From a virus: 64,000 bases of DNA. The notes beneath the pieces are model-generated. The model was not told where the DNA came from and did not search any database. It saw only the letters and a list, made by a program, of their open reading frames with translations. The stretch spans positions 32,001 through 96,000 of the IMG/VR virus record IMGVR_UViG_3300009149_000012. One strand, given 5' to 3'. Made by a program: the position numbers and the translations under genes. Numbering within the stretch: the first letter of the stretch is position 1; every line of letters begins with the position of its first letter. Positions 28,776-29,582 of this stretch are shown in pieces.

Positions 28776-29399
28776 TCAGGAATCGATGCGGTCCCAAACG
28801 GTCGGGATGGGCTTGGGCTTGGGGATCTCTTCAGGCGTGAGAGCCCTGACGCAAGAGGCGGGTCCCCAGAAGACCGTCTCGGATTCCGGGTCGGGCTTCA
28901 TGCCCATACGCCGGGTGCCGTAAGAAGCGCTCGTGCCCGTCCAGATGCACAAGCCGATGGTGCCCTTCTCGGGAAGGCGCTTGTTCTTACGGATGACCTG
29001 GACCCAGCGTCCACGCTTGGCTAGGCGGGCCTCACGCTCAGCTTCCTCTGCCGCACGCTTGGCTTGGGCTTCGGCAAGGATCCGAGCTTGCTCGTCTTGC
29101 CAATCGCTCGCCAGTTGGCGAACCTCATCGGTGGCGTCCACAACGCAGTCAACGTCTTGGAGATACGTCAACTCGAAGTGGGCCATAAGCTGGACCATCT
29201 TGACGCAGCCTTCGGCGGCATCCCACACCTTGGCGTAGGTGACGTCGGCGTAAACGTCCGACATAACCCGCTCATGACGCCGCTCGGGCTCTTCCAGCAC
29301 GCAGCCCTCAAACTCGACCACGGTCGACTTCAGGGTGCCACGGATTCCGTAGCCTTGCTTGTTTTCTGCGACGTTGTAGTGCTTGCGGGTGATAGCCAT
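28776..29399 (-). CDS. KOW/SH3-like domain protein (paralog of 31249..31548)
   Basis: KRGRWVQV...KGTIGLCIWTG...RMGMK...FWGPASCV; C-terminal PTVWDRID; GAGGA SD directly after a repeat. Confidence 0.75.
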   Translation of the reverse strand: MAITRKHYNVAENKQGYGIRGTLKSTVVEFEGCVLEEPERRHERVMSDVYADVTYAKVWDAAEGCVKMVQLMAHFELTYLQDVDCVVDATDEVRQLASDWQDEQARILAEAQAKRAAEEAEREARLAKRGRWVQVIRKNKRLPEKGTIGLCIWTGTSASYGTRRMGMKPDPESETVFWGPASCVRALTPEEIPKPKPIPTVWDRIDS

Positions 29400-29407
29400 G
29401 ATTCCTC

Positions 29408-29582
29408 ATTGCAGGTATCGGACTGCACTCCGTTAGTTTTAGGTTATGGACCCTCTAAGGTGCGAGCGGCGAGCCGATCAACTCAGTTGCAGGTTTTGGT
29501 CTGCACACCGTTGGTTTTAGGCATGGGGCGACATCGACCAGTACATGTTGCAGGTATCGGACTGCACTCCGTTAGTTTTAGG
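29408..29582 (-). CRISPR. mini CRISPR-like array: three 36-nt repeats, spacers of 25 and 42 nt
   Basis: Repeats at 29408-29443, 29486-29521 and 29547-29582; minus-strand consensus CCTAAAACTAACGGAGTGCAGTCCGATACCTGCAAC with a TGCAG/CTGCA stem. Confidence 0.8.

Follow-up and report, generated by a model that had tools for sequence, protein, structure and literature searches.

The locus and its CRISPR system

In this study we analysed a short array of the CRISPR type that adjoins the gene of a compact TnpB-like nuclease in a virus, with emphasis on its last 'spacer', a 42-nt interval termed S2, and on the open reading frame (ORF) that follows, ORF207. The array is located in bases 32001-96000 of the 148,881-bp IMG/VR viral contig IMGVR_UViG_3300009149_000012; this 64,000-nt stretch is the window, and positions refer to it unless marked as contig. 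The 31% completeness assigned to the contig by CheckV points to a huge phage, and a large terminase, inteins and a LAGLIDADG endonuclease are present as phage markers within the window, where genes are oriented on the minus strand almost throughout. Read along that strand, the region comprises a two-block sequence motif (class 1, see below), ORF99, the degenerate repeat R0, the interval S0, the repeat R4, the effector gene, a leader, R1, S1, R2, S2, R3 and finally ORF207. The effector (P0001, 29745-31088, minus strand) is a TnpB-like type V protein of 447 amino acids (aa), with the RuvC residues D281, E350 and D425 and a CxxC..CxxC zinc ribbon. ORF207 (P0002, 28776-29399, minus strand) encodes 207 aa downstream of R3, and ORF99 (31249-31548, minus strand) is a leaderless gene of 99 aa, paralogous to the C-terminal domain of ORF207.

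The repeats and intervals are likewise on the minus strand. Downstream of the effector gene, a leader of 162 nt (29583-29744) is followed by R1 (29547-29582), the first repeat of the array, the divergent R2 (29486-29521) and R3 (29408-29443), all of 36 nt. R3 is a full repeat that differs from R1 only in the final base (T in R3, C in R1), while R2 deviates at 5 positions and is probably the true last repeat of an inserted cassette described below. R1 and R2 are separated by the 25 nt of S1 (29522-29546), and R2 and R3 by S2 (29444-29485). On the other side of the gene, the full repeat R4 (31128-31163) is positioned 39 nt upstream of the effector ATG, preceded by the 36-nt S0 (31164-31199) and by R0 (31200-31237), the latter being joined to a box similar to a second motif class, class 2, in a unit that spans 31200-31244. 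The length of S0 is typical of spacers in the relatives of the effector, and that of S2 is atypical, as 30 spacers in these relatives measure 33-38 nt. What S2 has in common with a spacer is the presence of direct repeats, R2 and R3, on either side.

The effector matches TnpB models, with ISDra2 TnpB as the closest solved structures (E ~1e-18). Its best NCBIfam model is the generic guided_TnpB (99.7 bits versus a cut-off of 100), and none of the named Cas12 subtype models reaches its cut-off, Cas12f2 and C2c8 falling far below. About 100 metagenomic homologues share 40-62% identity with it, and a search of IMG/VR returned no close relative (best 33%). The catalytic and zinc-ribbon residues D281, E350, D425, C394, C397, C415 and C418 do not vary among 26 aligned sequences, and the nuclease is intact. 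Among the loci that we fetched (designated by L numbers), an array follows the effector gene in 7/7 of those extending past the gene (L085, L086, L087, L088, L091, L093 and L098; six distinct effectors, all in phage contexts). These arrays start 0-100 nt past the stop codon and hold 2-12 repeats of 36 nt with a period of 71-74 nt and spacers of 33-38 nt. The 3' end of the repeat forms a 5-bp hairpin, with a loop of 8 nt in R3, followed by two bases; over 17 repeat variants 98.8% of the cells are paired, with compensatory changes in 4/5 pairs, against at most 46% in slid controls. The effector and its arrays are a real CRISPR system. L086 and L087 (4500-5340) share an identical effector and two trailer-proximal spacers, yet possess 3 and 12 repeats, respectively, and the effector-proximal end of the arrays is hence dynamic. 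In L088, the module of effector and array is bounded by a perfect 29-bp inverted repeat (2931-2959 and 4752-4780), which suggests a mobile or invertible cassette.

A search for an anti-repeat or a trans-activating crRNA (tracrRNA; crRNA, CRISPR RNA) identified no convincing complement of the repeat within 3 kb, and Rfam returned nothing. In L088, L091 and L093 the array begins 0-8 nt past the effector stop codon, leaving no room there for a separate tracrRNA gene. The leader between effector gene and R1 holds a short CGCTCGCAA motif with flanking purines, also found in L085 (4393-4488) and L086 (4438-4505), which may be part of an RNA scaffold; similarity of the leader to a decayed duplicate of the 3' end of the effector gene was not significant.

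Exact searches in IMG/VR yielded no match for S0 or S1, and the spacers of the relatives have none in this phage or in the fetched loci. The reverse complement of S1 reads in frame as WGDIDQY and agrees in 19/25 positions with a site (contig 11585-11609) in a gene of ~1200 aa that belongs to the phage itself (contig 13860-10255), S1 being antisense to this gene, which is tape-measure-like as judged by size and composition. The differences are in frame and represent conservative codon changes, and the 5' flank of the site is TTT. Because such an in-frame match resembles a spacer captured from the orthologue of a rival phage, S1 is probably a genuine spacer despite its shortness, and its target probably the orthologue of the ~1200-aa gene in such a rival.

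S2 shares a promoter-like motif with other phage genes

An earlier model-made reading of this DNA, hereafter the sequence-only reading, had proposed that S2 is a phage promoter, based on its match in sequence and spacing to the motif directly upstream of the leaderless ATG of ORF99. The match is exact: GTTGATCGGC, 12 nt and CCTTAGAGGGT are found with equal spacing in S2 and at 31551-31583, and a pattern search returned these two as the only sites with zero mismatches (0.00 expected, from 100 shuffles). The further copy that had been placed near 2604-2640 is also present, at 2603-2640 on the plus strand and ahead of a leaderless ATG, albeit with a first block that is slightly different from the one stated. 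A count over the entire contig, suggested by the same reading, recovered five members of the form GTTGATYG, N15, CTTAGAGGG, N3, ATG besides S2. We refer to these as class 1; the copy of ORF99 spans 31549-31583 (minus strand), directly before the leaderless ATG.

The five members precede five mutually non-homologous proteins, with the ATG at a constant distance and a 38-nt frame of equal length. As the downstream proteins are mutually dissimilar, the motif is regulatory rather than a by-product of gene duplication. The variable middle of the class-1 sites is identical at 0-10/15 positions between any pair, and upstream of the motif there is no further conserved sequence. S2 keeps all conserved positions and is a sixth member, with the difference that ATA replaces the ATG: the last 4 nt of S2 are ATAA, a stop follows after 2 codons, and the real ATG is located 48 nt further on.

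Block 1 of the motif resembles a -35 hexamer, block 2 follows after 17-18 nt, and the A of the ATG is another 5-6 nt on, a geometry that fits a promoter of the sigma-70 family with the A of the ATG as predicted start site. Against a promoter speak the poor match of block 2 to the sigma-70 -10 hexamer, a scan with the sigma-70 consensus that found nothing in the region, and the GAGGG within the motif, which could serve ribosome binding instead of belonging to a -10 element. A housekeeping-type promoter was ruled out by the empty consensus scan, and since block 2 is also unlike the housekeeping -10, a phage-specific or alternative sigma factor is likely. It could also be argued that the two blocks represent an operator and a ribosome-binding site within longer transcripts, with no RNA start in S2, considering that GAGGG is found 3-4 nt before each ATG and that block 2 departs from a canonical -10 hexamer. 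Such an arrangement leaves the good -35 hexamer at 17-18 nt from block 2, the position of the A of the ATG at the expected start site and the absence of conserved sequence further upstream without explanation. Moreover, the motif begins directly past the preceding stop codon both in the repeat-less relative L090 and in the reconstructed ancestral window (see below), and the class-2 box also adjoins ATGs in the absence of a purine-rich stretch. We consider a non-promoter role of the motif very unlikely.

The class-2 box, CCGGTGTA followed by 9 nt, is unrelated to class 1 and adjoins the start codons of five other unrelated genes (ATG in four, TTG in one), with a sixth gene showing a 10-nt spacing. 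All copies are on the coding strand, at 28733-28749, 32001-32017 and 31228-31244 of the window and at contig 108188, 122759 and 123095; the first of these (minus strand) is located directly before the ATG (28732) of a 770-aa VWA-domain gene. The box is probably a second promoter class for leaderless genes. In R0, the class-2-like box is followed by the ACG of the repeat, where the other copies have the leaderless ATG. A start predicted at 31227 would yield a 28-nt repeat-derived 5' end, and a crRNA could arise by initiation there.

An empty site and two proposed insertions upstream of ORF207

The ORF207 protein has few relatives, among them a homologue of 59% identity on L090, a 1,153-bp metagenome contig that carries neither repeat nor nuclease. 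In L090, the end of an ORF99 homologue and its stop codon are followed by a 35-nt class-1 promoter, the ATG of the ORF207 homologue and matching first codons. To reconstruct the ancestral state, we removed from the window the segment between two copies of TGAGTTG and the 48 nt holding R3; the resulting sequence aligns to L090 from the ORF99 tail into ORF207 with zero internal gaps, 87/116 positions being identical. A more distant ORF207 homologue, on L096, is likewise leaderless behind a similar box, and with both homologues leaderless, the leaderless state is ancestral and that of the window derived. The pair of ORF99 and ORF207 predates the cassette, as the paralogues are already adjacent in L090.

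The edges of the cassette are marked by a perfect 7-bp duplication, TGAGTTG, on the left at 31245-31251 and on the right at 29479-29485, for which ~6e-5 would be expected by chance at a fixed position. TGAGTTG combines the stop codon of ORF99 with the 4 nt at which the promoter begins: the first 3 nt of S2 are a copy of the stop codon and the left cassette edge retains the first 4 nt of the promoter, which together account for the duplication. Considering that L090 harbors the orthologous promoter at the equivalent position in the absence of any array, S2 is not the foreign sequence that is expected of a spacer. We find it fairly probable that S2 is the native class-1 promoter of ORF207 bracketed by repeats, and not an acquired spacer, as part of the explanation developed here. 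The proposal that this 'spacer' is a promoter is thereby supported from outside the data available to the sequence-only reading, through membership in class 1 and the native place in L090. 'Spacer' is then a misleading name for S2, which would better be described as flanking DNA.

According to this explanation, two insertions shaped the locus. The first would have brought in a self-contained cassette behind the stop codon of ORF99 and ahead of the promoter, duplicating 7 bp of the target, the cassette comprising its own promoter box, R0, S0, R4, the 447-aa nuclease gene, the leader, R1, S1 and R2. In the second, a 48-nt piece consisting of R3 and a short purine-rich stretch would have entered between the promoter and the once-leaderless ATG. 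In the syntenic relative L089 (3900-5000), the ORF207 homologue is devoid of its first ~47 codons, and an oppositely oriented 271-aa gene and tRNA-like sequences are present instead; judged from this locus, the start site of ORF207 is an apparent insertion hot spot. One distant syntenic huge phage in IMG/VR, L095, has a different upstream region, and a metagenome scan with the VWA protein gave nothing.

The empty site also bears on whether S2 may be a true spacer, the crRNA of which brings the effector, through partial pairing, to the promoter family of the phage itself in a CreR-like manner, an alternative that the sequence-only reading had offered. Promoter-repressing repeat-like RNAs are known from types I and V-A (10.1101/2023.03.10.532045; 10.1101/2023.03.03.530964), both conserved blocks are common to S2 and all family members, and the best internal match, the promoter at contig 136700-136664, is identical to S2 in 32/37 positions. 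In L090, however, the counterpart of S2 occupies its native position, and the positions proximal to a protospacer-adjacent motif (PAM) are mismatched at both internal look-alikes, which disfavors the proposal: the 136700 site deviates at guide positions 2, 3, 12 and 13, and the 31583 site at positions 1-3 and most of the middle. A T-rich 5' flank is lacking at the two sites, their resemblance to S2 has the two-block pattern of a promoter and not that of a seed, and the effector retains all catalytic residues, unlike nuclease-dead repressors of the TldR type. We regard guidance by S2 to these promoters as highly improbable.

A repeat as the predicted leader of ORF207

Because all family-conserved positions are kept, the promoter in S2 most likely still fires at ~29447. 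This is where the sequence-only reading had expected the start, and the A equivalent to the leaderless start, as predicted from the class-1 geometry, is indeed at 29447, 4 nt before R3. The succession of R3, Shine-Dalgarno (SD) sequence and ATG that it described is also recovered: R3 is followed by GAGGAATC (29400-29407, minus strand), an SD-like stretch of 8 nt matching the promoter box of L090 in the 3' part of that box, and then by the ATG of ORF207 (28776-29399). Given the fixed geometry of the five bona fide class-1 copies, the leader is expected to consist of 4 nt, the repeat and the SD.

The predicted RNA would read 4 nt, R3, GAGGAAUC and AUG, and would be the ORF207 messenger and a crRNA-like molecule in one. 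By analogy with tracr-less phage effectors, the nuclease would load on the R3 hairpin and employ the next ~18-20 nt as guide, with GAGGAATC at guide positions 1-8. The guide segment would then encompass the ribosome-binding site, the start codon and codons 2-4, and as it covers these elements, loading of the nuclease and of the ribosome would be mutually exclusive on one RNA. Effector control of ORF207 translation is plausible from this geometry. In a predicted fold of the 63-nt leader, bases of the repeat can pair with the region of SD and AUG (-15.2 kcal/mol, z = -2.1).

Several points weigh against this account. S2 is by sequence nearer to the promoter at contig 136700 (32/38) than to the L090 promoter (24/38), and the orthology of S2 and the L090 promoter thus rests on position, not sequence. 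The leader fold is weakly better than shuffles (9/200) and constitutes weak evidence. A search for terminator-like sites on the cassette's minus strand found none, and read-through could therefore supply ORF207 expression independently of S2. R4 is a misfit for leader control, the SD being ~27 nt downstream of it, and a solo 24-nt repeat elsewhere in the contig (L100, 1543-1566, minus strand; contig 131042-131065) is positioned upstream of a promoter-like box.

This solo repeat, in a part of the contig outside the window, is identical to the 3' end of R3, including the unusual final T. A terminator-like hairpin precedes it, a class-2-like box is joined to it, and the ATG of a gene of 138 aa comes 15 nt further on; a search for the empty allele of the repeat gave a 36% relative only.

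Solo repeats are also found in L091, where the effector is 49% identical: two of them, at 5270-5360 and 6050-6140, are situated 360 and 1140 nt beyond an 8-repeat array. Both are preceded by a conserved CCGGTGTA-N9-ATG box and a further 17 nt, and after both an ATG comes roughly 10-20 nt later, belonging to a 97-aa ORF in the first case, while the gene after the second is uncertain. As these repeats follow class-2 boxes and precede ATGs, we count L091 as a recurrence of the layout.

The locus could alternatively represent a neutral scar, that is, debris from insertion of the cassette and recombination of repeats within a decaying mini-array, where R3 serves no purpose and expression of ORF207 relies on S2 or on read-through. 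Spacers of irregular length (25 and 42 nt), the degenerate R0, R2 and R4 and the absence of adaptation genes in view are congruent with decay, as are the arrays of L086 and L087, which vary between 3 and 12 repeats with one effector, and the rearrangement hot spot that the upstream region represents in the relatives L089 and L095. Decay does however not account well for the identity of R3 and R1 over 35 nt with an intact hairpin, nor for a ribosome-binding site exactly where the once-leaderless gene needs one, the vestigial leaderless ATG being now ATA, and an equivalent layout recurs in L091. We deem a mere scar unlikely.

The repeats as possible homing guides

Another use of the repeats, compatible with the native-promoter explanation, is as hard-wired guides for inter-phage competition or homing. 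R2 with the promoter and R3 with the ORF207 start would then act similarly to TnpB omega-RNA guides, directed against the repeat-less alleles of co-infecting relatives. The phage's own copy would be safe, as the repeat occupies the place of the PAM, and repair from cassette-bearing genomes would copy the cassette. The flanks are in line with such targeting: the sequence behind R3 is 23/24 identical to the natural empty allele L090, where its 5' flank is CTTA, S2 in an isogenic empty allele would follow the TTT of the last ORF99 codon, and the S1-homologous site is also behind TTT, so that all three flanks would fit a T-rich PAM. Furthermore, the closest solved structures are those of ISDra2 TnpB and homing by TnpB is established (10.1101/2023.03.14.532601), homing elements are abundant in the region (LAGLIDADG gene, inteins), and solo repeats are found at gene starts in this phage and in L091. 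On the other hand, a PAM is not derivable, as S0, S1 and the spacers of the relatives gave no protospacer match, and the isogenic empty allele was not recovered, S2 agreeing with the L090 promoter in only 24/38 positions. A 7-bp duplication is moreover no feature of IS200/IS605 insertion, if descended from a class-2 box, the flank of the L100 solo copy would follow a motif that is not T-rich, and S0 and S1 lack significant similarity to the insertion-site region. In these alignments the scores of both intervals were within the shuffle range (p of 0.13 or more), and derivation of S0 and S1 from that region was rejected.

On balance, hard-wired guides remain a tentative idea, somewhat unlikely in our estimation, and that the entire cassette is an RNA-guided homing element, with flanking phage DNA rather than captured foreign DNA in its guide slots, appears doubtful. 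If homing were true, the solo repeats before other gene starts (one here, two in L091) would represent further guides, and the cassette a living intermediate between the omega-RNA logic of TnpB and CRISPR arrays.

Comparison with known systems

Promoters inside arrays, extraneous crRNAs, repeat-like regulators and flanks that act as TnpB guides are already known; in the literature, we found no account of a native promoter that occupies a spacer slot while a repeat forms the leader of a protein gene. A close likeness is offered by Cas12r of the Thermus Lalka phages, for which it was determined experimentally that one repeat and 18 nt of downstream flank give rise to a guide RNA (bioRxiv 10.64898/2026.04.20.719267; see also PMC13187072). 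Cas12r is similarly a compact, phage-encoded and apparently tracr-less type V effector with its array directly behind the gene, and in Cas12r the last repeat with its flank gives a guide-like RNA and one repeat suffices. Compared by description, Cas12r has 564 aa, 29-bp repeats, an ARG PAM and a 26-nt handle with an 18-nt guide, as opposed to 447 aa and 36-nt repeats here. The flank RNA of Cas12r is treated as a by-product; in our locus, translation of a protein gene starts in the flank, and the 'spacer' ahead of it is the promoter of that gene.

The omega-RNA of TnpB and homing of IS200/IS605 elements (PMC8612924; 10.1101/2023.03.14.532601; PMC10278001) are comparable in that element-flanking DNA fills the guide slot and the element spares its own copy, where the adjacent motif is lost, ISDra2 TnpB being also structurally closest. 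Differently from IS200/IS605, there is no adjoining tnpA gene and there are no left or right element (LE/RE) ends here, and the target duplication is 7 bp; the relatives carry true repeat-spacer arrays, and the gene is flanked on either side by several repeats. TranC and other CRISPR-associated TnpB derivatives (LaTranC 9jfo, 9jfq; PMC10691335) are likewise TnpB-sized, array-associated and intermediate between transposon nuclease and Cas12; the effector here is a distant profile match (E ~1e-13), and it differs also by the tracrRNA result reported above for the surrounding 3 kb.

Degenerate or solitary repeats near cas genes and promoters are further known as CreR, CreA and crRNA-like RNAs, for which coupling of effector level to gene expression has been proposed (10.1101/2023.03.10.532045; 10.1101/2023.03.03.530964; 10.1101/2024.10.29.618823). 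RNAs of the CreR type act in trans on promoter DNA via a short, partly complementary spacer. Unlike these, the promoter itself is here in the spacer slot and the repeat in cis in the predicted messenger leader, and seed mismatches defeat pairing to the other promoters. Solo repeats in phage genomes, some with a promoter of their own, are also described as viral solitary repeat units or RNA anti-CRISPRs (Racrs; PMC10651486). Racrs mimic host repeats and poison host effectors, whereas the present repeats are those of the phage's own nuclease and precede protein genes.

Under the native-promoter explanation, the window and L090 represent a natural before-and-after pair for a TnpB-derived CRISPR cassette settling inside a tightly packed phage operon. 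The neighbouring gene would stay expressed, its promoter being in the spacer slot, and a leaderless gene would have gained a crRNA-handle leader. If the effector loads on this leader, a cis-acting link at the RNA level would connect a Cas12-like nuclease to a neighbouring protein gene, distinct from the DNA-level circuits of CreR and TldR. The locus would also provide a concrete case of flanking DNA becoming 'spacer' on the path from omega-RNA to CRISPR, and it serves as a warning for annotation, as spacers of odd length in phage mini-arrays may be native regulatory DNA.

The ORF207 and ORF99 proteins

Searches of Pfam, PHROG and NCBIfam gave no match for ORF207. Its N-terminal half is predicted to be rich in beta structure, followed by a long helix and, at the C terminus, a small beta-barrel of the SH3/KOW-like type; its structural model has a pLDDT (predicted local distance difference test) score of 75, and Foldseek returned weak SH3/KOW-like matches (E ≥ 0.02). 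ORF207 and ORF99 share a C-terminal domain of ~55 aa, the predicted small beta-barrel, and two copies of this domain are carried by the homologue P0117.

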